Shown piece after piece: positions 29,544-45,808 of a DNA stretch of 64,000 nucleotides. The stretch lies in contig JBAZNZ010000004.1 of the NCBI GenBank assembly GCA_041648975.1, forward strand, positions 1,779-65,778, written 5' to 3'. The position numbers and the translations under genes are program-made. Under the pieces are notes generated by a model. It was not told where the DNA came from, searched no databases, and was given only the letters and a program-made list of their open reading frames with translations. Origin of the DNA: Candidatus Omnitrophota bacterium. Lineage in GTDB: Bacteria > Omnitrophota > Gorgyraeia > 2-01-FULL-45-10. Position 1 is the first letter of the stretch. Every line of letters begins with the position of its first letter.

Positions 29544-31220
29544 TTACCAGAATTTTTTATTCGGCCTCTTCTTGGCGGTCACGTCTTTCTGCTGAGTGAT
29601 CGTATACATAGGCACATAAGCCTTGTTCACATCCGGCAGGTCCTTGATTACACGCCCCTTATTCATAAGATTGACCGTGATAAAGAAAATAAGTTCCGTC
29701 TTCTGTTTTGTTATCTCTTTCTTAGTAACCAGGAGTCCCAAGTACGGCACATCGCCGAATATGTCTCCCAGGAACGGAAGCTTCTTTCGCGTATCGATAA
29801 TGTTCTCCTTTATCAATCCGCCGATAAATATCGTGTCCCCGTCTTTTACCATGACCTGCGTCTTGGCCTGCCGCACCGAGAAGACAGGCGCGACTACTCC
29901 GCTTGACTTATCAAGCGTATCGTATCTCAACAGGTCGCTTATCTGCGGCGTCAGGTCTATTACTATCTCATCCTTGTCGTTGACATGAGGGACAACCTTA
30001 AGCATTATGCCAAGATCTTTCGGTTCATACCCCGTTATCTCCATCTTTCCGGTAGTTGAACTCCTCTCGTATTTAGGCATATTAAGCGTATTTCCGACAT
30101 TAATGAAGGCTTCGTTGTTGTTAAGGGTAGTAATCCTGGGATTCGATATGAGGTCGGTGTTGGACCTTGATTTTATCATCTCCAGGACAGCCGAAAATTG
30201 GCTGAAATCAAGAGTGCCGAACGTGAACTGGTCTGTTCCGGCATAAGGAAATCCGAAACTCCCTGATTTTCCCCCATTAGCAGGGAACTCGCTGGCCGTT
30301 TCCGAAGCTACGCCTCCGCCCGAGGTAGTGGTCGTTGTCGACGGGCTGGAGCTCAAGACCTGCGGGAAAAATATCATACTATCCTGCGCCGAGTTAAACG
30401 GCATCTTGAAATAGTCAAAGGGAAATGTTGTCGGCCTCTTGGCGCCGCTGACGGAGAGCTTGACGTTCCAGTCAATGCCCAGTTTTTCGCTGTCATCCAG
30501 CGCGGTCTCTATTATCCTGGCCTCTATGAGGATCTGGTCGGTCTGTTTGTCGAGCCTCTCAACGACCTGGCCGATCTTGTATATGTTAGTGGGGATATCG
30601 GTAACGAGGACTGTGTTGGTCCTTTCGTCGTATGTGACCTTGCCCCTTTCGCTGACTATATCCTTTATCGATGTGGCGACATCCTTTGACTTGCTGTAAT
30701 TGAGATTGAAGGCCTGTGTTGTCAGCTCTTCCGCCTTGAGCTTATCGACAGTCACCACCCTTATTATATCCCCCTCCCTTTCGTAGGCAAACCCGTAGTT
30801 CCTTAAGATGATATCGAGCGCTGTCTTCCATGGCTTATTCGTCAATTTCAGGTCTATGGTGCCTTTTACATCGGGCGCAGGCACGATATCCACTCCGGAG
30901 ACTTCCGATATGTACGCCAGTACCGTCTTGATATCGGCGCCCTTAAAGTTGACCGTCACGTTGCCGGGTTCGACTCTGGCTGCCGGAACATCGGGTTCTT
31001 TCGGCTCTTCCGGTTGAACCGCGGCTGCTGGGACCACAACCGGCGTCATCATCTCATTCTCCTGGGGCCTATATGCCTGATCCTGGCCGATGGGGACCGC
31101 CTCCTCTACCGGCGGCTCTTTATAATTCTTTTCCTGCGCGACCGACACCAACGAGGAATCAAACAATAGACATAAAGAAATAGTCAAGAAGCCGACCAGA
31201 CAGATCTTTTTATTATTCAC
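29544..31220 (-). CDS. pilQ: Type IV pilus secretin PilQ
   Basis: Signal peptide, N-domains, C-terminal secretin domain (…LPFLGDIFGDVPYLGLLV…). Confidence 0.85.
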   Translation of the reverse strand: MNNKKICLVGFLTISLCLLFDSSLVSVAQEKNYKEPPVEEAVPIGQDQAYRPQENEMMTPVVVPAAAVQPEEPKEPDVPAARVEPGNVTVNFKGADIKTVLAYISEVSGVDIVPAPDVKGTIDLKLTNKPWKTALDIILRNYGFAYEREGDIIRVVTVDKLKAEELTTQAFNLNYSKSKDVATSIKDIVSERGKVTYDERTNTVLVTDIPTNIYKIGQVVERLDKQTDQILIEARIIETALDDSEKLGIDWNVKLSVSGAKRPTTFPFDYFKMPFNSAQDSMIFFPQVLSSSPSTTTTTSGGGVASETASEFPANGGKSGSFGFPYAGTDQFTFGTLDFSQFSAVLEMIKSRSNTDLISNPRITTLNNNEAFINVGNTLNMPKYERSSTTGKMEITGYEPKDLGIMLKVVPHVNDKDEIVIDLTPQISDLLRYDTLDKSSGVVAPVFSVRQAKTQVMVKDGDTIFIGGLIKENIIDTRKKLPFLGDIFGDVPYLGLLVTKKEITKQKTELIFFITVNLMNKGRVIKDLPDVNKAYVPMYTITQQKDVTAKKRPNKKFW

Positions 31221-31593
31221 TCTTTACCCCTCCTTCTTCGGATAACTTCACCGTATGTTCGTTACCGTCTAAATGTAATATTATAGAGTTCGGGCCGATC
31301 TTCTTTATCACAAGCTCCCCCGTTTTCTCACTTTCCCTGATTATCTCTCCGTTCAATATGGCCAGTCTCTTTCCGTCGGCTCCCATAGCTATTCCTTCGA
31401 GGTTGATCTCATATATCGACGTCACGTCTTTAAGTTTCGTAGTGACGCTCTTCTCCTGGCCTACAAGCGGCACAAGAGGGTCACGTCTCCCGTGCGCATC
31501 GTACCTTATGGCCTCCATGCCATGAAGATACGTGGCCGCCACAAGCGCCGCGAGGGCTAAACCGCTGATCTTACAGGCTCTGAAAAAAAACAT
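31213..31593 (-). CDS. pilP: PilP-like pilus assembly protein
   Basis: Small signal-anchored protein between pilO and pilQ. Confidence 0.55.
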   Translation of the reverse strand: MFFFRACKISGLALAALVAATYLHGMEAIRYDAHGRRDPLVPLVGQEKSVTTKLKDVTSIYEINLEGIAMGADGKRLAILNGEIIRESEKTGELVIKKIGPNSIILHLDGNEHTVKLSEEGGVKSE

Positions 31594-31616
31594 TTAAATA
31601 TCCACCTCACGGGCGG

Positions 31617-32195
31617 TTAGCCGCCCTTCTTCATTTTATAAGTCATGACCACCAGCTCGATATCATGTTTTTTCGGGTTGGAGCTGTTCGACTTCACGGC
31701 TATATCGACTATCTTCATGAATCTTTCGCCACCCTCAAGGCGGGCAAGAAAATTCCCGAGCTCATGGTATCCCGACTTTGCGCTTATGTGGATAGGTATC
31801 TCCTGAAAAGGGGTGTCTTTCCGCGCTTTATCCTCTTTTACGATATTCGGAGTTATGGCGGTGATCTTTACATTGGAGCTCTTTGCGACCGCATTAAGGT
31901 TCTCAAGCAGACCGGATATCGGCTGTTCGGCAGGCAGCATCTTCTCGTAGAGATCCATCTTTTCTTGTATGGCCGCCAGGTCGTTCTTAAGTTTGTCTAT
32001 CCTGGCTATGTCTTCTTTGGCCTTGGCCAATTCAAAACGAGCCTCATTCATTTTGACGAAACTGCCGAAGACCCCCACTAACTGCGGTACAAGCAGGAAA
32101 TTCAAATAAAATATGAATGCGATAACGGATACCAGGACGATCAATATCATCGTTTGTTTCTGGTTCTTATCGAATGTAAAAGGCAATTTTATCAT
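31617..32195 (-). CDS. pilO: Type IV pilus assembly protein PilO
   Basis: N-terminal TM helix then coiled coil. Position between pilN and pilP. Confidence 0.7.
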   Translation of the reverse strand: MIKLPFTFDKNQKQTMILIVLVSVIAFIFYLNFLLVPQLVGVFGSFVKMNEARFELAKAKEDIARIDKLKNDLAAIQEKMDLYEKMLPAEQPISGLLENLNAVAKSSNVKITAITPNIVKEDKARKDTPFQEIPIHISAKSGYHELGNFLARLEGGERFMKIVDIAVKSNSSNPKKHDIELVVMTYKMKKGG

Positions 32196-32215
32196 ATTTT
32201 CCGGCGATCCGGTTT

Positions 32216-32896
32216 CTATTCTTTGCTGTTAAAGAGGCAAGCTATCTTAAAATTCATTACCTCCTGGTCATCGAACTTGCTGCTTTTCATCGACACAAGT
32301 TCAATCTGCTGAAAATCTGAATAAAAAGAGGCGTTATCCTTAAGGCTGCTCATGAACTTGCCTATAAGCGCCGTTCCCTGCCCTCCTAGACTCGACGCGT
32401 AACCCGTCAATACAAGATATTTGAGCACAGAGCTTTCCGGCGGCTTTGTGGTATCTTTTTTTACCTTTGCGCCCGCCGGTGGAGGAGCTTTTTCCTTTTG
32501 CCTCTCCTCGTAACCGAAATCGGACAACCAGATACCCGATGTCATTGAATCGCTCAATTCGTTCAGCTTCGCTGCCCAGCTGAACCGCCCGTCCACAAGC
32601 TCATCAATAGCCCTCACCTTTTGATCTTTCAGCTGGATAAGCGTCTTTAAAGACTCCGCATATCTCTTTTCAGGCATCACCGACTCCAACTTCATCGATA
32701 GCGAGGCAAGCGTCGACTTACTGTATACGCCGCCAAAGAATAGCGCTATATGCATTACTGCCAACACGGCAACGAAACCTATAGCTATGTTCATAACAGG
32801 AATATTCTTTAAAAAATTAAGGTCGGCCAGGCCGATCTTCTTATACGCCGGTTCTCTTTTCCTGTATTCCTGCGGCAATAGATTAATCTGTACCAT
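32216..32896 (-). CDS. pilN: Type IV pilus assembly protein PilN
   Basis: MVQINLLP N-terminal signature and TM helix. Confidence 0.75.
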   Translation of the reverse strand: MVQINLLPQEYRKREPAYKKIGLADLNFLKNIPVMNIAIGFVAVLAVMHIALFFGGVYSKSTLASLSMKLESVMPEKRYAESLKTLIQLKDQKVRAIDELVDGRFSWAAKLNELSDSMTSGIWLSDFGYEERQKEKAPPPAGAKVKKDTTKPPESSVLKYLVLTGYASSLGGQGTALIGKFMSSLKDNASFYSDFQQIELVSMKSSKFDDQEVMNFKIACLFNSKE

Positions 32897-33017
32897 AAGC
32901 CCTGTGGTTGTCCTCGGCCGATAGGCCGTTGTCTTACTCGGGGCAATACTTAAGCGGCTATTGCATTACCGCTCTGCAGTTAACGCCTTGTTCTGGCCGC
33001 GAATGTATATCTTCCGC

Positions 33018-34049
33018 TCATCTCAACGCCAATCCTGCGGCGACGCCGTAAGAACCTTTCGATCCTTCCAGGAGTTTCGCGTCTATTCCGGAGGCGCTTT
33101 TATCTAAAAATGCGAGCGGATCCCAGGCGAAAGGCCGGACGCCGAAATATTCCTGAAACAGGTCTTCCAATCCGGCCAGGCCCGAACTGCCGCCCGAAAT
33201 ATAGATCTCGTCGACGCCCCTGCCGTTCTGGTTCTCGTAATAATTGAACGACAACTTCACTTCGTCGAGAAGATTATTGACTACGGGTTTCACCGCATCT
33301 ACTATCGACTGCCGTTTGTCGTGAGGTGATTCCTTGATCTTATCGGATGCCGCATTGTCCACGCCCAGGACCTTTGATATAGCGGCGCTGAACTCATTGC
33401 CGCCTATTGCCAGGTCCCTGATAAAATATGCCGTGCCTTCCCGCACTATGGCCAGATTGGTGAACCTGGCGCCAATATTCAGGATCGCAAAACTCTTATC
33501 CGCGGCGGCATCCGCCTTGTTCCTGGAAAATGAGCCCGCCAGAGCCAGGCTGTCCACATCTACTGCCGCCACCGACAGGCCTGAAGCCTCCGCTGCCTTT
33601 ATCCTGTCTTCGATCATATCTCTTTTAGCGGCTACCAGTATTAAATCTGTCTTGCTCCCGGCCTTGTCCGTACGCAGGACCTGAAAATCCACAACACACT
33701 CGCTTATATTAAAAGGTACGACCTTTTCCGCTTCGAACCTTACCGCGCTCTTCAGCTCATCGTCTTTCATCTTCGGCATCGTCACGAATCTCGCTACGAC
33801 AAACGGACCCGAGACGGAGATATTGGCTTCTTTAGCCGAAAATTTCGATTCCTCGACCAACCGCGTAACCGTTTCTGCCATCTCTATGCGGGAAGCGCCT
33901 CTTACCTTCTTCATCCCTAAGGATATCAATGACGGCGAAATGCCGCCGGATACCTCGACCGCCTTGACGAACGAGCTGCCGATATCAAGCCCTACGATCT
34001 TTTTCGCGCTGGGGCCGTGTCCGGTCTTTCCGAAAGGAGTTTCCGCCAT
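33018..34049 (-). CDS. pilM: Type IV pilus assembly ATPase-fold protein PilM
   Basis: Actin-like fold (IVGLDIGSSFVKAVEV ... DIGARFTNLAIV). Confidence 0.9.
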   Translation of the reverse strand: MAETPFGKTGHGPSAKKIVGLDIGSSFVKAVEVSGGISPSLISLGMKKVRGASRIEMAETVTRLVEESKFSAKEANISVSGPFVVARFVTMPKMKDDELKSAVRFEAEKVVPFNISECVVDFQVLRTDKAGSKTDLILVAAKRDMIEDRIKAAEASGLSVAAVDVDSLALAGSFSRNKADAAADKSFAILNIGARFTNLAIVREGTAYFIRDLAIGGNEFSAAISKVLGVDNAASDKIKESPHDKRQSIVDAVKPVVNNLLDEVKLSFNYYENQNGRGVDEIYISGGSSGLAGLEDLFQEYFGVRPFAWDPLAFLDKSASGIDAKLLEGSKGSYGVAAGLALR

Positions 34050-34549
34050 TATCGTGCCGCTTTATCGTTTGGGCGCTTCGCGCCGGGCTTATAATTAAAC
34101 TCTATCGATACGAGCTTCTTCAACGACTCGGACATCGCCAGCAAATTTTTAGACTTCTTATCATACGGATTCACTTTAAGCGCCTCTTTGCAGCTTTCGA
34201 TCTTATTATCCAATCCATCCATAAATTTTTTCTTGTCTTCAGGGCTTACGTTGGCCCAAGTTTTTACCATATTTACACCGACGTCATCTTCCGGATAATC
34301 CTGATATAAGGTTTGCAGGTCGGGAGGAATCCCTTTCTTTTCCAATGTCCGGTCCGTCCCTGTTCCGGCTTTGTGCCCATAAGCAGGAATGGCTGCGCCT
34401 GGAACCGTCTCTTCCGGCACTATGGCGCGCGCCGGGGCCTTCGTCTCTTTAGCGGAAGTGAAACGAAGCGTCCTGATAAAAAACACAGCCAATGCTATTA
34501 ATATTATAAAGAGCGCTGTATTTATATACACAAGATTCCTGTCTTTCAT
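34049..34549 (-). CDS. Hypothetical membrane-anchored protein inside the pilus locus
   Basis: Single N-terminal TM helix, no recognisable domain. Translationally coupled to the pilM start. Confidence 0.4.
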   Translation of the reverse strand: MKDRNLVYINTALFIILIALAVFFIRTLRFTSAKETKAPARAIVPEETVPGAAIPAYGHKAGTGTDRTLEKKGIPPDLQTLYQDYPEDDVGVNMVKTWANVSPEDKKKFMDGLDNKIESCKEALKVNPYDKKSKNLLAMSESLKKLVSIEFNYKPGAKRPNDKAAR

Positions 34550-34561
34550 ATTATAAGGTCC

Positions 34562-35929
34562 TCAGTTCTGCTGCCATATCGGCTCGAATTCCGTAGCCTC
34601 GTTCTTAATCCTGAACAAAAGAGATATCCTGTTATAACCCGGGGGCAGTCCCAGGGGCCAGTTCGCCGGATCGGACCAATCGACGTCGCCTCTGTTAATG
34701 TCCCTGTTCAGAAGCCCGGGTATGGGTAATACGGTGTCTATGTCCACATCCCCTTTGGCAAAGATAGCGCCGTCTGTCCTGCCTCCAAATAATGCGTTGA
34801 AATCGCCGTTAGCGTATATGACAATATTGCCTCTAACGCCTCCGAACGCCCTTATGCCGCCGGTATTGACATCGCCATACGACACTATGGTCAGCGTATC
34901 GTCCAAGCCGTTCGTCGGCTGAACTACAGTGACATCCCCCGTAGCTATGATGGTGTGGCTCGAGTCGCCTCCCCACCATGCTGTATCGCTAAAAAGTATA
35001 TCCACACTACCGTCAACAAATATTACAGGCGTACCCACGGGAACACTCCATGGATCGAATGTCTGGGAGCCTGTGTAATAATTTTCTTCGCCGGGCGTTA
35101 TCCCAAGGTCAACCCCCAAAGAGTTATTAGCGGCATCGTCCAGATATGTTGTATAATAATATGTAAAAGCGTCTTTATCATTTATCACGCCGTCGCTGTT
35201 GACATCGTCCGCGCTGAATATCGTTTCCTGCCCCTCTGGGATATCCGCGACGGTTACGCTGCCGTCGCTGTTTATATCCGTTATGAGACTGCCGTCGTTA
35301 TTGGTATCGTATGTATCCCCAAGCCAGAATGAGGGCGCGGAAAAACTCTGGTTCTCCAATGTCTCTCCCGATACCTGCACAAAATTATTTGTCGTAACCG
35401 TCGAACCGCTCGCCAGGGGCCCCTCTGCCCTTACCCATGACCTGAATCCCAGCAATTTCGCACCGGATAAGGACATCGGCCCTATACAGCCAAGCGGATA
35501 ACCGCTGTTAAACGGCGAATCGAAACCATACCTCACTATGACCCTTGACTTACGGCCGTTAACGGTCCCCTCTGACACTATCCCGAATATATCAGTAGTA
35601 ACTACATCGGCACTGGCGGTAAATGTCCCTACGGTCTGGCCTCCCGCGTTTCTCGTCTTCACAACGCTGTCTGCCGACGGCACGGCCAGAGGCCAGATAA
35701 CAGTCTGGCCTTCTTTCGATTTCATCAGGGCATACATTATCTCAGCGCCTGATCTCGCGGCGTAACGCGCGGACATAAGATCATTAGCGATCTTCGTCTG
35801 CAGTATCTCGCCGGACCCCATGCTGACGACAACTCCCGCTATCAGGACGAGCATTACAAGAAACGCGACGACTATAACTATGACAAAACCTTTATTATGT
35901 TTCATATGATACTCTCTGTCAGCTCGCAA
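34562..35929 (-). CDS. PilX-like N-terminal-domain protein with dockerin/EF-hand-like Asp-rich repeats (candidate pilus tip or adhesin component)
   Basis: KGFVIVIVVAFLVMLVLIAGVVVSMGSGEILQT PilX-like N-terminus. Repeats DTNNDGSLITDINSDGSVTV and DDVNSDGVINDKD. Confidence 0.5.
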   Translation of the reverse strand: MRADREYHMKHNKGFVIVIVVAFLVMLVLIAGVVVSMGSGEILQTKIANDLMSARYAARSGAEIMYALMKSKEGQTVIWPLAVPSADSVVKTRNAGGQTVGTFTASADVVTTDIFGIVSEGTVNGRKSRVIVRYGFDSPFNSGYPLGCIGPMSLSGAKLLGFRSWVRAEGPLASGSTVTTNNFVQVSGETLENQSFSAPSFWLGDTYDTNNDGSLITDINSDGSVTVADIPEGQETIFSADDVNSDGVINDKDAFTYYYTTYLDDAANNSLGVDLGITPGEENYYTGSQTFDPWSVPVGTPVIFVDGSVDILFSDTAWWGGDSSHTIIATGDVTVVQPTNGLDDTLTIVSYGDVNTGGIRAFGGVRGNIVIYANGDFNALFGGRTDGAIFAKGDVDIDTVLPIPGLLNRDINRGDVDWSDPANWPLGLPPGYNRISLLFRIKNEATEFEPIWQQN

Positions 35930-36524
35930 CGTTCTTTAATGACACTATATCGCTGTACTCGGCTTTGATATGCTGTCCGCCCGGCCTTGTGCCGGCGATA
36001 TCTTTCTCCACCGTTGCCGTGACTTTGATAAGATTACCGCACCCCAAATATTTCTCAAATTTCAGGTCCGACAATCCGATAGTGGCCATTATCTCATGGA
36101 CAGTTCCGTCATTATCCATATAATACAGCGCGTTCAGCCCGGATGCGGCATCAATGCCAAGATAAAAAGACCTTTCGTTCGAACCATCCGGCTCAAGAGC
36201 GTAATTTATCCTCTGGAGCGAAGGGATATCCGGCTCGGCTATCGCGTTAGCTATACCGTTCCTCCTTTTAAATGTAACCGCGCCCACACTGAATGTCCCA
36301 ACCGTATCATCCATACTGCCTTCCCGGATCGCCGAAAGGGCGATCCTCGCGATCCGCTGGGCTTCGATACGGGGCGACATCTCGTAAAACCAGGACCAGC
36401 TCATCACATATATCGACCATGCCGCCAGAAATATGAACATGGCGATAAAACTTGCCGTCAAAAGCTCTGTTAAAGTGAATGCGCGCCCGGTCCCGGCGTC
36501 AGGAAGACGTATGGTATGCGACAT
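35919..36524 (-). CDS. Prepilin-type minor pilin (PilW/GspJ-like), non-canonical leader
   Basis: GRAFTLTELLTASFIAMFIFLAAW, a class-III-signal-like N-terminus with Glu at +5-equivalent. Confidence 0.55.
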   Translation of the reverse strand: MSHTIRLPDAGTGRAFTLTELLTASFIAMFIFLAAWSIYVMSWSWFYEMSPRIEAQRIARIALSAIREGSMDDTVGTFSVGAVTFKRRNGIANAIAEPDIPSLQRINYALEPDGSNERSFYLGIDAASGLNALYYMDNDGTVHEIMATIGLSDLKFEKYLGCGNLIKVTATVEKDIAGTRPGGQHIKAEYSDIVSLKNVAS

Positions 36525-36999
36525 AGCAAACCGCCCTTTCGCTGCATGCCTGGCCGTTCATATCTTCATTCCATGTTACGACGAAGCCGACGATTTTAAA
36601 AGGAACCCCGATATATGTTATCTGCGTGCCATCGGCATTTTCCACATTATCCGGAAAATAAGGATCCGGAACCAGCGAGCCAACCAGGTCATCGGACGTA
36701 TCGGCCGTACCCCGAGTATCTATCGTAACGGGTGTCGGATCTGCCGAGGATATCGTTTCGTAATAATCGGCTTCGCCTCCGATCCCGCCGTCATATCCCG
36801 CGCGCAATTCCTGTTCCATGTAACCGCTGATGACGTTCATCGCCGCAAGCCTGTGCCTCGCGCGCGAGGCCCCGAGGTTTGAGATGGTAAAAGCGCCGAG
36901 GACGCTTACCAAAAGCGTGCCCAGAAGCACTATACTGATAAGGCTTTCGACCAACGTGAGGCCTTTATTGCCGCGTAAAAAAAATGGCCGCAGTATCAT
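36499..36999 (-). CDS. Prepilin-type minor pilin (PilV-like)
   Basis: NKG|LTLVESLISIVLLGTLLV, a canonical prepilin cleavage/methylation motif. Confidence 0.65.
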   Translation of the reverse strand: MILRPFFLRGNKGLTLVESLISIVLLGTLLVSVLGAFTISNLGASRARHRLAAMNVISGYMEQELRAGYDGGIGGEADYYETISSADPTPVTIDTRGTADTSDDLVGSLVPDPYFPDNVENADGTQITYIGVPFKIVGFVVTWNEDMNGQACSERAVCYVAYHTSS

Positions 37000-37352
37000 G
37001 GCAGTGTATGCCCCTCGCTCTCTTTACTGCATCTCACTTGAGGTTTGTCTCCGACAGGATAGATGGTATATACACCCTTGGAAGGACAAGCCGGCTTGCC
37101 GCCGTCGATGTAGACATAGATCACTTCTTCCTGTTCGATCGAAGGCTGCGTACCGCTCTGGATAGTATTGTCCAGAGCCCACTGTTCAATGGCTCCGTCA
37201 ATCTGTTTCAGGTTATTTATACAGGCATTCTTTGCAGCGGCCCTGCCTGTTTTGAGATAATTAGGGACAACGATTGCGAGGATGATTGCGATCACTAAGA
37301 CCACTATCATCAATTCTACCAAAGTGTAGGACTTGCGGTGGAAGAAGATCAT
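36996..37352 (-). CDS. Pilin paralog with Ser instead of Gly at the -1 cleavage position
   Basis: HRKS|YTLVELMIVVLVIAIILAIVVPNY; shares KNACINNLKQIDGAIEQWALDN and a C-terminal C...GHTLP with the upstream pilin. Confidence 0.6.
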   Translation of the reverse strand: MIFFHRKSYTLVELMIVVLVIAIILAIVVPNYLKTGRAAAKNACINNLKQIDGAIEQWALDNTIQSGTQPSIEQEEVIYVYIDGGKPACPSKGVYTIYPVGDKPQVRCSKESEGHTLP

Positions 37353-37599: not shown

Positions 37600-37968
37600 T
37601 TATAATGTGTGGCCCGTTGTGCTATTCGGACATACCGGAGCAGCAGCCACTGTTGCAGGTGTGGCATACGCAGTAGTTCCGCATGTAGGCCATTTCTTCA
37701 GGTAATCAGGAACAACACCGATCGTAGCGCCGTCTGTATCCTTCACTACGGCATCCGTATCGTTCTTGCCCTGATCTATGGCCCACACCTGGATCGCTCC
37801 CTGTATCTGCTTCAGGTTGCCGATGCAGGCGTTCTTCAACGCAGTCTGCCTTGCTCTGACGAAGTTCGGAATGGCTATCGCCGCCAATAGACCGATAATT
37901 GCGACTACTATCATAATTTCAACAAGCGTAAAGCCTTTCCTGTTCATCTTTATCATCATATATATCAC
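37600..37968 (-). CDS. pilA: Type IV major pilin (PilA-like)
   Basis: NRKG|FTLVEIMIVVAIIGLLAAIAIPNF canonical class III signal. Own consensus promoter; two downstream terminator hairpins. Confidence 0.75.
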   Translation of the reverse strand: MIYMMIKMNRKGFTLVEIMIVVAIIGLLAAIAIPNFVRARQTALKNACIGNLKQIQGAIQVWAIDQGKNDTDAVVKDTDGATIGVVPDYLKKWPTCGTTAYATPATVAAAPVCPNSTTGHTL

Positions 37969-38125: not shown

Positions 38126-39340
38126 CTACACTCCCATGACAGCGGTTATTTTGAATATCGGCAGGAACATACATATAACAATCGACCCTATAACAATACC
38201 CAAAAATGCTATTATAAGGGGCTCTATAAGGCTTGTCAGGGCGCTTACCGAAGAATCTACCTGTTCATCATAAAAATCGGCTATTTTTGACAGCATTTTC
38301 TCCAACTGACCTGATTGTTCGCCCACAAGGACCATCCTGGTAACCATAGGAGGAAATATCTTTGACCTTGCCAATGGCTGAGCTATACTTTCTCCTTCCT
38401 TAACACTCGTTCGAACATCATCTATGGCCTTTTCAACTACCTTATTTCCCGATGTTTTGCTGACTATTTCAAGCGACGCAAGTATTGGGACACCCGATTT
38501 TATAAGAGTAGCGAGAGTCCTGGTAAATTTGCTTATGGCAACCTTTCTGAACAGGATGCCAAAGATCGGCATTTTTAGCATAAATGAATCGAGCCGGAAC
38601 CGCCCTTTTTCTGTTTTAAGGAACTTGTTAAGCATAAATCCGCCGGCAATCAATCCTATAAATATCACCGCCGCGAATTTCTGGAGCGCATCGCTGATAC
38701 TGAGCAGGATACGGGTCGGCATTGGCAACTCTGCCCCAAATCCTTCAAATATGGTCCTGAATACAGGCACCACCTTCCATAGAAGAACGAAAGTAATACC
38801 AATAGCCATTAAACTGACTATAGCCGGATAGACAAGAGCTGATTTCACCTTCTTTTGAAGAGAGCTCGTCTTTTCCAGGTATTCCGCAAGTCGGTCGAGT
38901 ATCTCGTCCAACATACCGCTCGATTCGCCGGCTTTTACCATATTCACAAACAGGGACGAGAAGATGTTTTTCTGCTTTGACATGGCGTCTGAAAGGCTGG
39001 CGCCCGCCTCCACGTCGCTTCGCACATTAACGACGATGGCGGCAAAGGCCTTGTTGTCCATCTGCTCACCGAGAATATCAAGCCCTCCTACAAGAGGTAT
39101 GCCCGCATCCACCATAGTGGCAAGCTGCCGCGAGAATATCACTATATCATCCAATTTTACTTTCTTCTTGCCGCCGAGCAGGGAGGGAAATTTAAAACCG
39201 GAAACCTGTTCGCTGACCGAAACTATAATGACATCTTTTTTCCTGAGTATATCTATGACTTCCGCGCGGTTCTTTGCCTCAATGGTCCCGGTTACCGCAT
39301 TCCCGCTATTGTCTTTTGCCGCATATTTGAACTTTCCCAT
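38126..39340 (-). CDS. pilC: Type IV pilus inner-membrane platform protein PilC (GspF family)
   Basis: Two GspF repeats, about 400 aa, adjacent to pilB. Confidence 0.9.
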   Translation of the reverse strand: MGKFKYAAKDNSGNAVTGTIEAKNRAEVIDILRKKDVIIVSVSEQVSGFKFPSLLGGKKKVKLDDIVIFSRQLATMVDAGIPLVGGLDILGEQMDNKAFAAIVVNVRSDVEAGASLSDAMSKQKNIFSSLFVNMVKAGESSGMLDEILDRLAEYLEKTSSLQKKVKSALVYPAIVSLMAIGITFVLLWKVVPVFRTIFEGFGAELPMPTRILLSISDALQKFAAVIFIGLIAGGFMLNKFLKTEKGRFRLDSFMLKMPIFGILFRKVAISKFTRTLATLIKSGVPILASLEIVSKTSGNKVVEKAIDDVRTSVKEGESIAQPLARSKIFPPMVTRMVLVGEQSGQLEKMLSKIADFYDEQVDSSVSALTSLIEPLIIAFLGIVIGSIVICMFLPIFKITAVMGV

Positions 39341-39341
39341 C

Positions 39342-41066
39342 TCAATCCTCCGAAGTGACTCTCAAGACCTCTTCGAACGTCGTGACACCGTTCACAAAAT
39401 TCTCTATGGCATTATCCCTCAGTGTCTTCATATGGAGCTCTTTTACGGCGTAATTTTTTATATCGTCACTGCCGCTCTTTTTCATTACCATATCGCGTAT
39501 AGAATCATCAAGAAGGAGGGCTTCGAGAATACCTATCCTTCCATAATATCCCGTATCGCTGCATTTAGGGCAGCCCCTGCCCTTAAAAAATACCTTTCTG
39601 TCTTTTTTAACCACTTCATCGATATTAAAGCCTGCCCTTTCAAATACGTTCTTCGGGATCTCGACTTCCATTTTACAATTAGGGCATATCTTCCTCATGA
39701 GGCGCTGCGCCGACGACAAGACAAGGCTCGACGCGACAAGGAAAGGCTCGACTCCCATATCTATCAGGCGGGTTATCGCGCCCGCTGAATCGTTAGTGTG
39801 CAGGGTGCTGAGGATCAGCTGCCCGGTAAGCGAGGCCTTGATAGCGATATCCGCGGTCTCAAAATCCCTTATCTCTCCCACCATCACTATGTCCGGGCTC
39901 TGCCTCAATACGGACTTAAGGCCGTTTGCGAAAGTCAACCCTATCTCGGACCTTGCCTGTATCTGAGTAATGCCTTCCACCTCATACTCGACCGGATCCT
40001 CAAGAGTAATTATATTGCGTTCCGGCGTGTTAAGCTGCGTTACTATCGAATAGAGCGTCGTCGATTTTCCGCTGCCTGTAGGGCCGGTAACAAGTATCAT
40101 ACCGTACGGCCTTTCAAGCGCGGTCTTAAAGGTGCCAAGCGGGCCCGGCAGGAATCCGAGCTTATCCAGCCCGATGCTTAGGCTCGATTTGTCGAGCGCC
40201 CTTAAAACTATCTTTCCGCCGAACGCCACGGGAAGAACCGACACCCTGAAGTCTATCTCGTTCCCCAGAAAGTTTATCCGGAAACGTCCGTCCTGCGGCA
40301 TCCTCGTCTCGGTGATGTCGAGCCTTGACAGGATCTTAAGGCGCGCCAGGACGGCGTTCTGGTTCTTCTTAGGCAGTGAAAATACATCGTGCAGGCTGCC
40401 GTCTATCCTGTATCGTATCCTCAGGTTCTTCTCGCACGGTTCGATATGTATATCGCTCGCGCGGCGTTTCAAGGCTTCATTCAATATCAGGCCCACCATC
40501 TTTACGATCGGCGCGCTTTTCGATTCTTCGGCTACCTCGCTTATATCGACCCTGTCTTCCTCTTCCACCTTCTCTATCTCTACGGCCTCCGAAGAGACCT
40601 CCTCCAGGAGCTTTGTTATCTCCTGCGCATGGCCCCCGTAATAGTTATGTATCCCCTGCATGATGTCGTTCTCTGTGGCTATCACAGGGTCTATCTGGAA
40701 ATGGGTAAGCATCTTTATATCGTCTATCGCGAGTATATTAAGCGGGTCCGACATAGCTATCGTAAGGACGCCGCCGATCTTCGATACGGGTATTATCGAA
40801 TACTGCCTGGCCATCTTCTCCGGGATCAGCGGGATAAGCGACTTATCTATCTTATATTTCGTCAGGTCTATAGGAGGCATGTTAAGCTGGCGGCTCATCA
40901 CCACCATGAGGTCCTTTTCCGATACGAAACCGTTCCCGATCAATATCTTTCCAAGACTTCCTCCGGATTTTTTCTGTATCTCGAGGGCGCGGTCAAGATC
41001 CTTCTGCTTTACCATCTTACCGTTAACCAGAAGGTCTATGAGCTTATATCTGAATGATTCTATCAT
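39342..41066 (-). CDS. pilB: Type IV pilus assembly ATPase PilB (GspE family), copy 1
   Basis: Two N-terminal GSPII_E_N domains, Walker A GPTGSGKSTT, Asp box, His box, tetracysteine CPNC...CPKC. Confidence 0.9.
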   Translation of the reverse strand: MIESFRYKLIDLLVNGKMVKQKDLDRALEIQKKSGGSLGKILIGNGFVSEKDLMVVMSRQLNMPPIDLTKYKIDKSLIPLIPEKMARQYSIIPVSKIGGVLTIAMSDPLNILAIDDIKMLTHFQIDPVIATENDIMQGIHNYYGGHAQEITKLLEEVSSEAVEIEKVEEEDRVDISEVAEESKSAPIVKMVGLILNEALKRRASDIHIEPCEKNLRIRYRIDGSLHDVFSLPKKNQNAVLARLKILSRLDITETRMPQDGRFRINFLGNEIDFRVSVLPVAFGGKIVLRALDKSSLSIGLDKLGFLPGPLGTFKTALERPYGMILVTGPTGSGKSTTLYSIVTQLNTPERNIITLEDPVEYEVEGITQIQARSEIGLTFANGLKSVLRQSPDIVMVGEIRDFETADIAIKASLTGQLILSTLHTNDSAGAITRLIDMGVEPFLVASSLVLSSAQRLMRKICPNCKMEVEIPKNVFERAGFNIDEVVKKDRKVFFKGRGCPKCSDTGYYGRIGILEALLLDDSIRDMVMKKSGSDDIKNYAVKELHMKTLRDNAIENFVNGVTTFEEVLRVTSED

Positions 41067-42790
41067 ACCGTATCCAGGTCCTGTTCCCCGACTGTTACCC
41101 GAAGCACCTCGTCCAGGGTTGTCACGCCGTCGAGCGCGTTCTGCATCCCGTTCTCCCTGAGAGTCTTCATGCCTTCACGCCTGGCCTCTTCCCGTATCTT
41201 ATATTCCTGGGCTTCTTCCAGTATAAGGACCTTTATTCTTGAAGTTACCGGCAAAACTTCAAGTAACGCCGTCCTTCCCTTATAACCCGTGCCCAGGCAT
41301 TTATTGCACCCTTTGCCGCGATAGAACTTAACGCCCTTCTTATCAGTATCTATCTTAAGCTTTTCGGCCATATCTTTGCCGAGTTCGAAAGGCTCTTTGC
41401 AGCTCAGGCATATCTTGCGGACAAGCCTCTGCGCGCCTACCATTATTAAGGATGAGGTTATTAAGAACGGTTCGACGCCCATGTTAATAAGGCGGACTAT
41501 GGAACCGGTAGCCGTCGTCGTATGCAGTGTGCTTAAGACCAGGTGGCCCGTCAAGGCCGACTTGATCGCTATATCGACAGTCTCGAAGTCCCTTATCTCC
41601 CCTATCATTATAACATTCGGGTCCTGGCGCAATATCGAGCGTAAGACACTCGCGAAAGTAAGCCCGATATCGGGTTTTGCGGCGACCTGATTTATGCCTT
41701 CGATTATATACTCCACAGGATCTTCGACAGTGACGATATTCTTTTCGGGAGAATTCACATGCTGCATTACCGAATAAAGGGTGGTGGTCTTGCCGCATCC
41801 GGTCGGCCCGCATATCAGGATCATACCGTGCGGCTTTGAATCGGCTTTCTTTATCTCCTCCAGGGACCGGGTGTCAAATCCCAGCTTCTCTATATCAAGG
41901 GTAGCCTGGGACTTGTCCAGGATCCTCAACGCGACTTTTTCCCCGCGGCTGGACGGAAGAACCGAGACCCTGAAGTCCACTTCCCTGCCGCTCAACTTTA
42001 CCTTAAACCTTCCGTCTTGAGGCAGTCGTCTTTCCGCTATGTCCAGGTCCGACATTACCTTTATCCTGGATATTATGGCGTTCTGGAATGCCTTCGGCGA
42101 CCGCTTGCCTTCGCGCCATATGCCGTCAACGCGGTATCTTATACGGACCTCGGTGTCGAGAGGCTCGATAAGTATATCGCTGGAACGCATTGAAACGCCT
42201 TCCGCGAGAAGCATATTGGTGATCTTGACCACAGGCGCATCCTGGGTCATCCTCAATATGTCTGTGGAACTCTGCGATTCTTCGCCGGAGAGATTATCAA
42301 TAAGCTTCAGGTCATCGATATCGCCCACTATCTTCTCTATCGCCGCATAAGCATCCTCGTCATAATAATGGCCGAGCGCCTCCCTGATATCCTTTTCATA
42401 CGCGATGACCGGGCTTATTTTATATCCCGTGAGCGTCTTTATATCGTCTATCGCGAATATATTAAGAGGATCAGCCATGGCTATCATCAAGGTGTCTCCG
42501 ATCTTCGATATCGGCAGGATCATGTAATTTCTCGCTGTCTTTCTCGGCACCAATTTTATGACAGCGGGATCTATCTTATAGCGTGAGAGGTTTATAGGAG
42601 GTATGCCGAGCCCCTGGCTAAGTGTAACCATCAGGTCGCTTTTCGATACAAGGCCCAGGCTGATAAGTATATCGCTTAAAGACCCGCCCTTTTCCTTCTG
42701 GAATGAAATGGCCTTTTCGAGATCGGCAGGTTTAATGAGCTTCTTATCGACCAGTAATTTCGCAAGTTTCTCTTTTAATTCTGTAGCCAT
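41063..42790 (-). CDS. pilB: GspE-family pilus/secretion ATPase, tandem paralog of pilB (copy 2)
   Basis: Same architecture as copy 1 (GPTGCGKTTT, CLSC...CNKC). The two proteins are clearly divergent paralogs. Confidence 0.85.
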   Translation of the reverse strand: MATELKEKLAKLLVDKKLIKPADLEKAISFQKEKGGSLSDILISLGLVSKSDLMVTLSQGLGIPPINLSRYKIDPAVIKLVPRKTARNYMILPISKIGDTLMIAMADPLNIFAIDDIKTLTGYKISPVIAYEKDIREALGHYYDEDAYAAIEKIVGDIDDLKLIDNLSGEESQSSTDILRMTQDAPVVKITNMLLAEGVSMRSSDILIEPLDTEVRIRYRVDGIWREGKRSPKAFQNAIISRIKVMSDLDIAERRLPQDGRFKVKLSGREVDFRVSVLPSSRGEKVALRILDKSQATLDIEKLGFDTRSLEEIKKADSKPHGMILICGPTGCGKTTTLYSVMQHVNSPEKNIVTVEDPVEYIIEGINQVAAKPDIGLTFASVLRSILRQDPNVIMIGEIRDFETVDIAIKSALTGHLVLSTLHTTTATGSIVRLINMGVEPFLITSSLIMVGAQRLVRKICLSCKEPFELGKDMAEKLKIDTDKKGVKFYRGKGCNKCLGTGYKGRTALLEVLPVTSRIKVLILEEAQEYKIREEARREGMKTLRENGMQNALDGVTTLDEVLRVTVGEQDLDTV

Positions 42791-42825: not shown

Positions 42826-43275
42826 TCAATGGCGGTTATAGTTCTTGCTTATCGCGTTAGTCACGTCGGTCATCGTGCTCACGAAGACCTGGACCTTGCA
42901 CTTCGTAAGCATCTCTATATCCTCAACTGCCTGGAAATTCAGCGGATTCGACATCGCTATCGTAAGGAGGTCGCCTATTTTATCTATAGCTATAAGGTTA
43001 TATTGTTTAGCGACGTGCTCGGGTATCATCTTGACGGCTTCGCTATTCACCTCATAAAATTCCAGAGGAAGATAGGGGAAACCGTATTGGACGGTCAGGG
43101 CCTGCGCTATCTCCTCTTCCTTGGCGAAACCCATCGCGACCATTATCTGGCCTATCAGGCCGCCCTTCTCCTCCTGAACCTTCAAGGCCTTAGCCAATTG
43201 CGACTCGTTTATCACGCCTCTTTCCAGTAGAAGTTCACCCAATTGTTTCGAGACAATACGTCTTATTGGAGACAT
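42826..43275 (-). CDS. Stand-alone GSPII_E N-terminal (MshEN-like) domain protein
   Basis: Two tandem N-domain repeats and nothing else. First repeat QLGELLLERGVINESQLAKALKVQ fits the MshEN c-di-GMP-binding motif except R to Q at position 1. Confidence 0.6.
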   Translation of the reverse strand: MSPIRRIVSKQLGELLLERGVINESQLAKALKVQEEKGGLIGQIMVAMGFAKEEEIAQALTVQYGFPYLPLEFYEVNSEAVKMIPEHVAKQYNLIAIDKIGDLLTIAMSNPLNFQAVEDIEMLTKCKVQVFVSTMTDVTNAISKNYNRH

Positions 43276-43296: not shown

Positions 43297-44361
43297 CTAC
43301 TTTTTAAATATCCTCTTAAGATCATCGACATCAGTGGATCTCTCAAGTGCCTCTTCGTAAGATATAAGCTTCTTCTGGTATAGTTCATAAAGGGCCTGGT
43401 TCATTGTCCTCATGCCCTCTTTCTGCGAGGTCTGCATGACGGAATATATCTGATGGATCTTAGACTCCCTGATCATGCTGCGTACAGCGGCCGTGATCAA
43501 TAAAATCTCTACAGCCAGGACGCGGCCGTGGCCTCCGACCTTCGGCAGCAACTGCTGGGCCATAACGCCTATAAGGACAAATGAAAGCTGCGTCCTTATC
43601 TGGGCCTGCTGATAAGCGGGAAAGACGTCTATGAGCCTGTTTATCGTCTGGACGCAATCCGATGTATGGAGCGTGGCAAAAACGAGGTGGCCTGTCTCTG
43701 CGATTATAAGCGCGGATTCTATCGTCTCGAGATCCCTTAATTCCCCTATTAATATTACATCGGGATCCTGGCGCAGGACATGTTTAAGGGCCCCGGTAAA
43801 TGAATAGGTGTCGCTTCCAAGCTCGCGCTGGTTGACAATGGCCTTTTTATTCCTGTGAAGATACTCTATAGGGTCTTCGACTGTTACAATGTGACACGGC
43901 CTTGCGGCGTTTATCGAATCTATCATCGATGCCAGGCTCGTCGATTTTCCGCTTCCGGTAGCGCCTGTGACAAGCACGAGCCCTTTCGGACGGTTACATA
44001 AGTCCTTCACGACATCGATAGGCAGGCCGCATTCTTCTAACGGCCATATGTCGTGCGGTATCACCCTTATCGAGCACGCGATAGAGTCCCTCTGCTTGAA
44101 GACATTCACCCTGAACCGGCCCAGGCCGGATACTCCGAAAGCCAGATCAAGCTCCAATTCGCGCTCGAACTTCTCTTTCTGCGCGTCGTTCAGCAACTTA
44201 TAGGTCAGCTCTTTCGATTCCACCGGGGTGAGGATACCTCCTTCAACCGGGATGAGTTTTTCGTCTACGCGTATAACGACCGGCGCTCCCGCGGTAATAT
44301 GGATATCCGAAGCGCCTTTCTCTACCATCATCTTCAATAGCTTATTCATGTCGTGAGGCAT
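43297..44361 (-). CDS. pilT: Twitching motility ATPase PilT
   Basis: PilT length (354 aa), Walker A GATGSGKST and PilT-type N-terminus. Confidence 0.9.
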   Translation of the reverse strand: MPHDMNKLLKMMVEKGASDIHITAGAPVVIRVDEKLIPVEGGILTPVESKELTYKLLNDAQKEKFERELELDLAFGVSGLGRFRVNVFKQRDSIACSIRVIPHDIWPLEECGLPIDVVKDLCNRPKGLVLVTGATGSGKSTSLASMIDSINAARPCHIVTVEDPIEYLHRNKKAIVNQRELGSDTYSFTGALKHVLRQDPDVILIGELRDLETIESALIIAETGHLVFATLHTSDCVQTINRLIDVFPAYQQAQIRTQLSFVLIGVMAQQLLPKVGGHGRVLAVEILLITAAVRSMIRESKIHQIYSVMQTSQKEGMRTMNQALYELYQKKLISYEEALERSTDVDDLKRIFKK

Positions 44362-44392: not shown

Positions 44393-45808
44393 TTAAGCGA
44401 AGACCCTGTTCTTCCCGGCCGTCTTCGCCTCTTTGAGTAAATTCATGGCCTTTTTATATAATTCGTCTCCGGTCGCCCCGTCGATCGGGTTTTCGCTGAC
44501 ACCGCATGAAACGGTAAGCGCGGCCTTACCTACTCTTACGAGATTCGCGGCTTCTATCCTTTTCCTAAGGTCTTCGGCGATATCGGTCGCCTCTTTCTTG
44601 TTCTTCTCCGGCATGAGGACAGCGAATTCATCCACGCCGACCCTCGCCGCCTTGCCTACCGGCGGGATATTGTCCTTTATCAGCTTGGCCATCTTATTCA
44701 GAGCCTCTTCTGCGGCCAGCTCACCGTGCGTCTCCCTGAAGTTCTTGAAATTGTCGATATTAAATACGATGAACGCGCAAGGCCTCTGATAGAATATCGA
44801 GCGCTTTATCTCTTCCTCGAGCCGTGTGACGATAAAATTCTTATTATAAAGGTCTGTCAAATCGTCTTTTATCGAAAGCTCTTCGGTCTTCCTGTTCAAT
44901 ATGTCGCTCTCGATAGCTATCGTTATCTGTTTTGCGAATACCTTGATCATCTCTATATCGTCGTTCTTGAATTTGAAATCATCGGCCCTGCTGCCGACGA
45001 TAAAAAGCCCCAGGTTATTTCGTCCGGAAAACAAAGGGACGGCTATGATATTCTTTAATCCGTATCCGGCCTTCAACTCTTCCACCTCTTTCGACGGCTT
45101 CATCCCTTTATCCAGGACAAAAATAGCGCGTTCCTGCACGGCCCTTTCCAGGACACTGCGGCCGGTCTTCCTGATCACCAGGTTATCGAGGCTCTCCTTA
45201 TCGAGGTTGTAAGAGGTCTTTACCGAAAAATCCCCATTCCCCGCCTTGGGCATGTACAGCGCGCCGAAACCTGTATCGAATACCAGCGAGGACTTTTCCG
45301 TTATCATCTCCAGCAGCGGGTCGAGCTGTATGGAGCCTGCCGAGATCATGTCCCCGACCTGCAGGAGGCTCGACAATGCCAGGACCTTTTTGTTTATGTC
45401 TACATTTATCTCCCGCATCCTCTGTCCGTAATTCTTCAGTTCATCCAGGTTCGATCTTATCTTCTGGGTCATGGTGTTTATCGAATATGCCAGGTTGCCT
45501 ATTTCGTCTTCGCTCGACACAGACAGTTTCCTGTCATATTCGCCGTTGGCCATTATCTTGGCCTCGATAGCCATATCAATTACGGGATCCACCAGCCCCT
45601 TAGCCAGGGCAAGGCCCAGAATAGCTATTATTATCGAAGAGACCAGCACGACACTTATGGTAGATATTCCGTCGAGATTCGGAAAAACATAAGTCGAGAT
45701 AATATACATCGAAGCGAGGAGAGGTATGATAGACATCAGGCTGAAGGCGAGAAGAAGTTTGTATCTCAAACCCTTGTGGACTATGGTTAAACGCTTGAAG
45801 ATATTCAT
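44393..45808 (-). CDS. Membrane HAMP-GAF-GGDEF domain protein with degenerate GVDEF motif
   Basis: TM helix, HAMP, GAF-like region. GGDEF fold where the RYGGEEF position reads RVGVDEF and no RxxD I-site is present. Confidence 0.75.
   Translation of the reverse strand: MNIFKRLTIVHKGLRYKLLLAFSLMSIIPLLASMYIISTYVFPNLDGISTISVVLVSSIIIAILGLALAKGLVDPVIDMAIEAKIMANGEYDRKLSVSSEDEIGNLAYSINTMTQKIRSNLDELKNYGQRMREINVDINKKVLALSSLLQVGDMISAGSIQLDPLLEMITEKSSLVFDTGFGALYMPKAGNGDFSVKTSYNLDKESLDNLVIRKTGRSVLERAVQERAIFVLDKGMKPSKEVEELKAGYGLKNIIAVPLFSGRNNLGLFIVGSRADDFKFKNDDIEMIKVFAKQITIAIESDILNRKTEELSIKDDLTDLYNKNFIVTRLEEEIKRSIFYQRPCAFIVFNIDNFKNFRETHGELAAEEALNKMAKLIKDNIPPVGKAARVGVDEFAVLMPEKNKKEATDIAEDLRKRIEAANLVRVGKAALTVSCGVSENPIDGATGDELYKKAMNLLKEAKTAGKNRVFA

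Follow-up and report, generated by a model that had tools for sequence, protein, structure and literature searches.

The textbook type IV pilus is extended by one homohexameric PilB. In the stretch of DNA analysed here, 64,000 nucleotides of an Omnitrophota metagenome contig (assembly GCA_041648975.1, contig JBAZNZ010000004.1, positions 1,779 to 65,778), which we call the window, there is a complete type IVa pilus (T4aP) locus in which a single platform protein is accompanied by two extension ATPases, named here PilB1 (41063..42790, minus strand, 575 aa) and PilB2 (39342..41066, minus strand, 574 aa). We suggest, as a tentative reading to which we give somewhat less than an even chance, that PilB1 and PilB2 work as an obligate two-subunit extension motor, probably in the form of one mixed hexamer. 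The suggestion is built on the domain content and intact motifs of both proteins, their strict pairing, the age of the duplication, the reciprocal substitutions, and the recurrence of such pairs in other phyla, including a fused form, all of which are observed directly in the genes; the activity and the interaction of the two proteins are predicted from sequence. The conservation of the pairing throughout Omnitrophota, together with its independent origin in two other phyla, points to a two-component motor rather than to a spare copy. Two extension motors in a single T4aP are already known from Acinetobacter baylyi, and what appears to be new is that two tandem paralogues, kept as a pair throughout a phylum, feed a single PilC. 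Our literature searches gave no description of the Omnitrophota pair, of its split-off MshEN protein, of the Verrucomicrobiota counterparts or of the fused form.

The paired PilB proteins and their conservation in Omnitrophota

A first-pass annotation of the window had pointed to two full-length, diverged ATPase genes in one pilus operon, and both the open reading frame (ORF) calls and Pfam bear this out: the T2SSE model is matched over its whole length by PilB1 (442 bits, E 1.5e-132) and PilB2 (432 bits, E 1.6e-129), far beyond chance, and the two proteins are 49% identical over their full length. It was also right in considering two diverged PilB-type extension ATPases in one pilus operon unusual, and in seeing in both proteins a Walker A motif (GPTGCGKTT in PilB1, GPTGSGKST in PilB2) and a tetracysteine zinc motif CxxC...CxxC (CLSC...CNKC and CPNC...CPKC, respectively), the latter being kept in the orthologues. 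Both have the N1/MshEN, N2D and C-terminal domain (CTD) architecture of PilB, and their alignment to Geobacter PilB (5TSG) spans residues 8-569 of PilB1 and 8-573 of PilB2. The double N-terminal GSPII_E_N domain that had been assigned to each protein has to be corrected, given that a single MshEN stretch is all that Pfam recognises in either of them (residues 61-146 with 84 bits in PilB1, residues 61-147 with 81 bits in PilB2), that the subdomain recognised by the NCBIfam cyclic di-GMP (c-di-GMP) motif model at residues 9-60 belongs to the same N1 domain, and that 575 aa leave space only for N1, N2 and CTD. The third MshEN domain of the locus is encoded by a gene of its own (149 aa), directly upstream of PilB1.

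It had also been proposed that one of the copies might serve secretion or competence, and by sequence neither of them is a secretion, competence or Tad ATPase. The best model for both is TIGR02538, the T4aP PilB (630.8 bits for PilB1 and 641.1 for PilB2, just below the cutoff of 675.65), followed by GspE TIGR02533 (590 and 595 bits, under the cutoff of 630.25 as well as under the PilB scores), TfpB NF053534 (434 and 447 bits against a cutoff of 850), ComGA (237 and 242 bits), and then the PilT and TadA models. The nearest solved structures of both copies are Geobacter PilB (5TSG, 6OLJ, 5ZFR) and Myxococcus xanthus PilB, then Thermus thermophilus PilF, and then EpsE/GspE; PilB1 matches Geobacter 5TSG/6OLJ with E 8e-172. 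In trees the two copies form paired sister-type clades, neither of them joining GspE or ComGA, and around pilB1 and pilB2 lie pilC, pilT, pilMNOPQ and pilins, as in T4aP loci. The closest solved relatives, Geobacter metallireducens PilB (5TSG/5TSH/6OLJ) and M. xanthus PilB (E ~1e-170), share with the Omnitrophota copies the N1-N2D-CTD arrangement, the catalytic residues and the tetracysteine motif, but they are single-copy homohexamers with intact H203, D387, H413 and RLG motifs, whereas in Omnitrophota some of these features are missing from each paralogue, and not the same ones in both.

With residues numbered as in G. metallireducens PilB and their roles taken from McCallum 2017 and 2019 (PMC5424180, PMC6858323), both copies and essentially all of their orthologues keep the Walker A lysine K331, the Asp-box E357, the catalytic glutamate E395, the Arg fingers R257, R271 and R286, as well as T411, the gamma-phosphate histidine H420 and the four cysteines; the pore-loop residues D398 and E400 are also kept in both. 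The full catalytic set, including both His-box histidines, is present in PilB1, and PilB2 has all of it but the first His-box histidine, which is replaced (H413Q) and fixed as glutamine in the main clade. Of the inactivating Walker or His-box changes that, according to the first-pass annotation, would have told against its idea, this His-box change is present; the gamma-phosphate histidine, the Walker A and B motifs, the Asp box and the Arg fingers are all kept, and given that H413 is not the phosphate-binding histidine and that PilB2 is under constraint equal to that of PilB1, we do not regard PilB2 of the window genome as a pseudo-ATPase. Both copies are apparently catalytically competent.

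Besides this shared core, the two copies have diverged in a reciprocal manner. Taking as conserved those positions kept in at least 85% of 29 single PilBs, 118 outgroup-invariant sites are kept in both copies, 12 are lost only in PilB1, and 12 only in PilB2. These private changes are fixed; those of PilB1 include H203L in the N2D 'SDIH' motif, V284A, T324C beside the P-loop, N343D, Q367T, N422T and D433N, and D423 is Thr throughout PilB1; those private to PilB2 include E281Q/G, N364T, D387S and N389D in the 'LRQDPD' segment, and H413Q. The closed inter-subunit interface has been described as formed by segments with the P-loop Thr, with T411, which packs between H413 and H420, and with the LRQDPD Arg, equivalent to R195 of PilT (PMC5424180, PMC6858323), and private changes fall in such closed-interface elements in both partners: T324C, N422T and D423T in PilB1, H413Q and D387S (next to R385) in PilB2. 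A site-by-site co-variation between the partners (V284A/T324C with H413Q) was also considered and is not used as evidence, since it had too few independent events and also exceptions.

Apart from these general features, one Omnitrophota genome, Omnitrophica UBA6233 (L047 9953-11704), has a PilB1 in which the Walker A lysine is changed to Glu, R286 to Cys, G394 to Ser and H420 to Arg, although the ORF, next to PilB2, is still of full length. No GGDEF or MshEN-only gene was detected at this locus.

The pairing itself was surveyed by scanning one genome per species, with the ORFs of related loci called by a custom script, which gave about 50 Omnitrophota loci. Counting a PilB1 only where at least 1.7 kb lay downstream of it, and a PilB2 only where there was room upstream, PilB2 follows PilB1 in 51 of 51 cases and PilB1 precedes PilB2 in 49 of 49, always in this order, with the first gene best-matching PilB1 and the second PilB2. 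The median gap between the genes in the 60 loci holding both is 12 nt, and it is 20 nt or less in 40 of them. In the window the stop codon of PilB1 overlaps the start codon of PilB2 in an ATGA, a single base lies between the PilB2 stop and the pilC start, and a consensus scan of the window gave no promoter-like site between pilB1 and pilB2. The PilB1 orthologues are 51-81% identical within Omnitrophota, and the relatives carry only the NCBI name 'ATPase, T2SS/T4P/T4SS family'. The usual gene order, found in about 50 loci, is radical-SAM, GGDEF, (PilT), MshEN-only, PilB1, PilB2, PilC, with PilT at the position that it has in the window only in the window's close clade (L003-5, L048, L083-86, L089). 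A second survey, a metagenome scan with PilB2 as seed, gave the same picture and added a deeper lineage, L092-96, with Omnitrophica as its named relatives, in which the orthologues of both copies lie with MshEN-only and PilC genes.

In most Omnitrophota relatives the module lies directly upstream of a 16S-tRNA-tRNA-23S-5S operon (L007 14775-20171; L022, L023, L043; L006 16650-17542), and it is because this rRNA operon follows pilC that many contigs of metagenome-assembled genomes stop about 1 kb past pilC; a hypervariable pilin region at these contig ends, which we had considered, is thus ruled out. It is only the window's clade, with a few more, that has pilins and pilMNOPQ after pilC. Nine other Omnitrophota genomes (L056, L057, L059, L060, L062, L068, L070, L072, L074) have a single-PilB layout, PilT-PilT-PilB-PilC-pilin-pilin-PilM-PilN-PilO, whose PilB is 43-46% identical to both window paralogues.

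In neighbour-joining (NJ) trees on corrected p-distances, the only kind of tree that we built, the PilB1 clade and the PilB2 clade each have 100% bootstrap. Corrected distances average 0.42 inside either clade, 0.94 from one clade to the other and 0.96-0.98 to the outgroups, from which it follows that the duplication is old and that both copies have been evolving at the same rate; they are not recent duplicates, as had been left possible. The two clades group together, against Geobacter, Myxococcus, Gemmatimonadota, Firmicutes and the single Omnitrophota PilBs, with 68-84% NJ bootstrap. The distance matrices of PilB1 and PilB2 also show the top correlation among six linked genes (r 0.97), with a partial r of 0.82 after removal of the radical-SAM signal, which lends some weak support to a pair acting together. 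The fixed order, the tight spacing, the equal rates, the highest correlated divergence, the reciprocal loss of invariant residues and the single PilC lead us to see in the pair an old, fixed module that behaves, as far as sequences tell, as one evolutionary unit.

Independent PilB pairs in Verrucomicrobiota and Patescibacteria

The metagenome scan also gave many PilB-PilB-PilC and PilB-PilT-PilB-PilC loci (L117-L161; for instance L138 5893-10676 and L123 3977-9845). The tandem PilB-PilB-PilC genes have their named relatives in Opitutales, Puniceicoccaceae and other Verrucomicrobiota, and the PilBs of the PilB-PilT-PilB-PilC loci fall in the same two clades as the Verrucomicrobiota pair. The two Verrucomicrobiota copies are sisters with 92-94% NJ bootstrap, and any cross-phylum pairing has 0%; therefore, this duplication is independent of the Omnitrophota one. 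A duplication shared throughout the Planctomycetes-Verrucomicrobia-Chlamydiae (PVC) group, with Omnitrophota PilB2 equivalent to the first Verrucomicrobiota gene, had been suggested by small differences in BLAST scores and was rejected on this same 0% cross pairing. No stand-alone MshEN gene was seen at the Verrucomicrobiota loci in their BLAST annotation.

A third and also independent form is a fused double PilB, found among 1.8 billion cluster representatives in at least 13 clusters (at 50% identity), with Parcubacteria and Paceibacterota (Patescibacteria) as named members. It is a single chain of about 1000 aa with the arrangement N1-N2D-CTD-linker-N2D-CTD (L163 8001-11057, L164 8001-11030, P0122, P0126, P0128, P0130 and P0132 are examples), the catalytic residues are kept in both halves, and the first and second halves form separate clades. 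Its gene lies between a DHH-family gene and ruvB, away from pilC. Both the Verrucomicrobiota tandem and the Patescibacteria fusion have a linked active-type pair with loss of D387 in one partner, as in Omnitrophota, and the Patescibacteria form differs from the Omnitrophota pair in being fused, in having no second N1 domain and in not lying beside pilC.

Among 123 conserved core sites, only D387 shows, in each of the three paired lineages, a loss by one partner while the other has kept it. It is replaced by Ser in PilB2, by Ala in the Verrucomicrobiota first gene and by Asn in the second half of the fused protein; the triple overlap expected from chance comes to about 0.03, a figure that is a rough estimate. 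In the non-fused representatives the proteins without H203 keep D387 and H413, and those without D387 keep H203.

One mixed ring or two extension motors

The arrangement that we favour would be the following. PilB1 and PilB2 would be an obligate, co-expressed pair serving the single PilC encoded downstream, and they would assemble into a mixed hexameric ring, probably of three PilB1 and three PilB2, with two non-equivalent subunit interfaces instead of the one interface type of a PilB homohexamer; pilins would be polymerised as this mixed ring turns and lifts PilC, the mechanism proposed for Geobacter PilB. We infer this physical co-assembly and its stoichiometry mainly because the fused version found elsewhere shows the same D387 asymmetry, and in the fused Patescibacteria chain two active-type PilB modules are physically tied. 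A hetero-hexamer, one of the explanations offered by the first-pass annotation, therefore gains indirect support and looks viable. The more general proposal, that obligate PilB hetero-hexamers evolved at least three times with one partner losing Asp387 by the closed interface, and that in Omnitrophota the sensing of c-di-GMP moved to a free MshEN protein, we consider doubtful.

Several points weigh against the mixed ring. The sister grouping of PilB1 and PilB2 is only moderate (the 68-84% given above) and is lost with the widest taxon set; a high mirror-tree correlation is expected for any two homologous, linked genes; the private changes in the interface elements could equally tune two distinct homohexamers; and the chance figure behind the D387 convergence is approximate. 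The PilB hexamers described so far work with C2 symmetry (PMC5424180), which an alternating 3+3 ring would break. For the retraction ATPases PilT and PilU, the tandem paralogous pilus motors that have been studied best, the conclusion was that each forms its own homohexamer, the genetics having argued against mixed rings (PMC6762196, citing Chlebek et al.), and the roles of PilB and TfpB in A. baylyi appear to be temporally distinct (PMC8213720). The dead PilB1 of UBA6233 would suit the role of a structural partner, as a mixed ring might allow, but this system is perhaps decaying, given that its GGDEF and MshEN-only genes are also missing.

Two separate homohexameric extension motors, cooperating on one machine either as an initiator and a processive extender or as a primary and an accessory motor in the manner of PilT/PilU, are the close rival of the mixed ring because of these PilT/PilU and PilB/TfpB precedents, and we consider them a plausible solution that would still be more surprising to confirm than to discard. 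A. baylyi uses PilB and TfpB as two non-redundant extension motors of a single T4aP (Ellison et al. 2021, PMC8213720); full piliation depends on both, neither complements the other, and a 2024 review explicitly does not decide between two hexamers and hetero-oligomers (PMC11656802). The A. baylyi system is like the Omnitrophota pair in having two PilB-family extension ATPases for one T4aP system, but TfpB is as far from PilB as GspE or MshE and is unlinked to pilC, whereas the Omnitrophota copies are adjacent, tightly spaced paralogues upstream of pilC, lie far under the TfpB cutoff (434 and 447 against 850 bits), and are known from genes alone. PilT and PilU, like PilB1 and PilB2, are adjacent paralogous genes of moderate identity and similar divergence that serve one pilus machine, and yet separate homohexamers were concluded (PMC6762196); they differ in being retraction motors without N1/MshEN, PilU depending on PilT. 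Each Omnitrophota copy could run alone, since every core catalytic residue is kept in both, the private changes near the open and closed interfaces could set different ring kinetics, and the strict co-occurrence and co-expression fit two homohexamers equally. Against them stand the 100 informative cases in which PilB1 and PilB2 were never split, whereas TfpB is found away from pilC, the symmetry of the lost invariant sites (12 and 12), and the loss of D387 by one partner in a covalently fused double PilB as well, which would be hard to build as two homohexamers.

Other readings are less probable. It is unlikely that one copy acts chiefly to gate the other, as a regulator or scaffold with slow or non-motor ATPase function: PilB2 has its fixed H413Q, PilB1 is without the otherwise invariant N2D His203, and the PilB1 of UBA6233, with its ORF intact, is without the Walker A Lys, the Arg finger and H420, but other lineages keep the full catalytic set in both copies, which evolve at equal rates, the gamma-phosphate-contacting H420 is kept in both, and the UBA6233 locus looks like a decaying one. 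A split into two alternative motors, one for each of two pilins or filaments and comparable to a single machine that makes two pili, is a quite improbable solution. Two short pilin paralogues do follow pilC in the window and in L004, L048 and L083, and each pilin gene of the window has a promoter-like site of its own (a consensus match only), but the first-pass notion that two PilBs go with two pilins fails in both directions, and we rejected it: L086, L087 and L089 have the PilB pair with one major-pilin gene, and single-PilB Omnitrophota loci (L056, L057, L059, L072) have two pilin genes. In most Omnitrophota, moreover, it is the rRNA operon and not pilins that comes after the pair, and there is only one PilC. 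Least credible of all, to the point of being very hard to sustain, is that one copy comes from another system sharing the operon (type II secretion, competence or an MSHA-type pilus); the GspE scores of both copies are not far under those of PilB (590-595 against 631-641 bits) and the pilin N-termini also match ComGC and GspG models, but both copies rank PilB over GspE, TfpB, ComGA and TadA, the solved structures closest to either one are Geobacter and Myxococcus PilB, the trees do not set one copy apart from the other, and the locus has pilT, pilMNO and a secretin and no genes specific to type II secretion.

The three paired lineages are three independent natural experiments that share the D387 asymmetry, and they bear on the question of one ring versus two that the sole studied exception, the A. 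baylyi PilB/TfpB system, left between separate and mixed rings. Asymmetric rings may be a recurrent solution in the building or the regulation of pilus motors among phyla whose cells are small and possibly dependent on a host, and for which pili are thought to be important, and the Omnitrophota locus also offers a case in which a c-di-GMP receptor domain has apparently been split off from its own ATPase.

The c-di-GMP genes and the rest of the pilus locus

In the mixed-motor reading, the control by c-di-GMP would have been delegated from the N-termini of PilB1 and PilB2 to the separate MshEN-only protein (42826..43275, minus strand, 149 aa, Pfam MshEN 59.7 bits), acting with its GGDEF neighbour and, in most relatives, with a REC-HD-GYP phosphodiesterase. 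The Gly of both RLG motifs (G7 and G38) is replaced in PilB1 and in PilB2. The MshEN motif of Wang et al. 2016, used in a relaxed form of two 24-residue [RKPN]hGxxhhxx[GAS]hhxxxxhxxxhxx[QNKRYWST] units with a 5-residue spacer, is matched by 0 of 49 PilB1 and 0 of 42 PilB2 sequences, with one motif in 3 of the 42. The NCBIfam c-di-GMP motif model NF053729 (cutoff 38) is passed by PilB1 (44.5 bits), PilB2 (51.1) and the stand-alone protein (57), and since the motif Gly residues are gone in the two ATPases, these keep the fold and not the binding signature. Nearly all related loci have the stand-alone gene upstream of PilB1, and it encodes the most conserved protein of the cluster; both motif skeletons are present in 37 of its 48 orthologues when the first residue is ignored, and among solved structures it comes closest to the first MshEN domain of T. 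thermophilus PilF. It is a candidate c-di-GMP receptor or adaptor for the pair, and it may bind c-di-GMP and carry second-messenger input to the motor.

In T. thermophilus PilF and in Vibrio cholerae MshE, the latter being an MshEN c-di-GMP receptor (PMC5013675), MshEN domains control the extension ATPase. PilF has three MshEN domains on one ATPase, and the Omnitrophota locus likewise has three in a row, but on three polypeptides; unlike those of PilF and MshE, its ATPase-borne MshEN domains are without the motif Gly, and the free one keeps the skeleton without the leading Arg.

This delegation of c-di-GMP control has its own points against it. The stand-alone protein is without the leading Arg/Lys of both motifs, so that only 1 of 48 orthologues matches when [RKPN] is required. 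The adjacent membrane HAMP-GAF-GGDEF protein (44393..45808, minus strand; Pfam GGDEF 103.9 bits, plus GAF and HAMP) has GVDEF in place of GG[DE]EF and no RxxD I-site, its orthologues have AGDEF, SGFEF, GDNEF, NEDEF, SDDEF and others, also with no RxxD I-site, and it is probably not an active cyclase; the idea of an active cyclase feeding the MshEN domains is weakened by this degenerate active site. There is also no HD-GYP gene at the window locus or elsewhere in the searched window, nor any further PilB gene. Most other lineages (38 loci) have between PilB2 and pilC a gene for a REC plus HD-GYP (Pfam HD_5) protein of about 355 aa with an intact HD...GYP signature, as in L006 13926-14999, and it is in these lineages that the rRNA operon comes after pilC.

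The genes of the window locus are all on the minus strand, in the order GGDEF protein, pilT, MshEN-only, pilB1, pilB2, pilC, two short pilins, three probable minor pilins, a 166-aa unknown and pilM/N/O/P-like/Q. The GGDEF gene is the probable head of the operon; promoter-like sites, which like the terminator-like ones are consensus matches only, lie upstream of it (45886-45858) and before each pilin gene. PilT, the retraction ATPase (43297..44361, 354 aa), scores 475.7 bits with NCBIfam TIGR01420 PilT/PilU (cutoff 319.1), and the platform protein PilC (38126..39340, 404 aa), present as a single copy, matches Pfam T2SSF twice (222.6 bits) and the NCBIfam PilC models with 437 and 426 bits, both under their cutoffs. 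Pilin A (37600..37968, 122 aa, N_methyl 37.1 bits, motif RKGFTLVEIM) is the probable major pilin, with a promoter-like site at 38113-38085 and a terminator-like site at 37536-37517, and pilin B (36996..37352, 118 aa, N_methyl 25.4 bits, HRKSYTLVELM) is its paralogue; the ComGC and GspG matches mentioned above concern the N-termini of these pilins. Pilin B has Ser for Gly at cleavage position -1 (HRKS/YTLVE), which may affect its processing; Gly is found there in the orthologues from L004, L048 and L083.

Position and N-terminus are the sole grounds on which three genes (166, 201 and 455 aa; 34562..36999) are assigned as probable minor-pilin or tip genes; one product, that of 166 aa, has an N_methyl score of 20.9 bits, slightly below the cutoff, and the other two have hydrophobic prepilin-like N-termini and no Pfam match. 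The interval from the minor pilins to pilM (34049-35929) encodes a 455-aa protein whose N-terminus is hydrophobic and another protein of 166 aa; both are without a Pfam match and may be tip or PilX/PilY1-like components. The pilM, pilN, pilO, pilP-like and pilQ secretin genes (29544..34049) were assigned with Pfam and NCBIfam (PilM_2 177.6 bits, PilO 67.7, a weak PilN of 18, Secretin 132.6 plus Secretin_N and STN), and the secretin scores 241 bits with NCBIfam PilQ TIGR02515, under the cutoff of 284. A 264-aa ORF at 48153-48947, without a Pfam match and in a patch of 40% GC as compared with about 49% for the window, lies between a radical-SAM gene and rodA.

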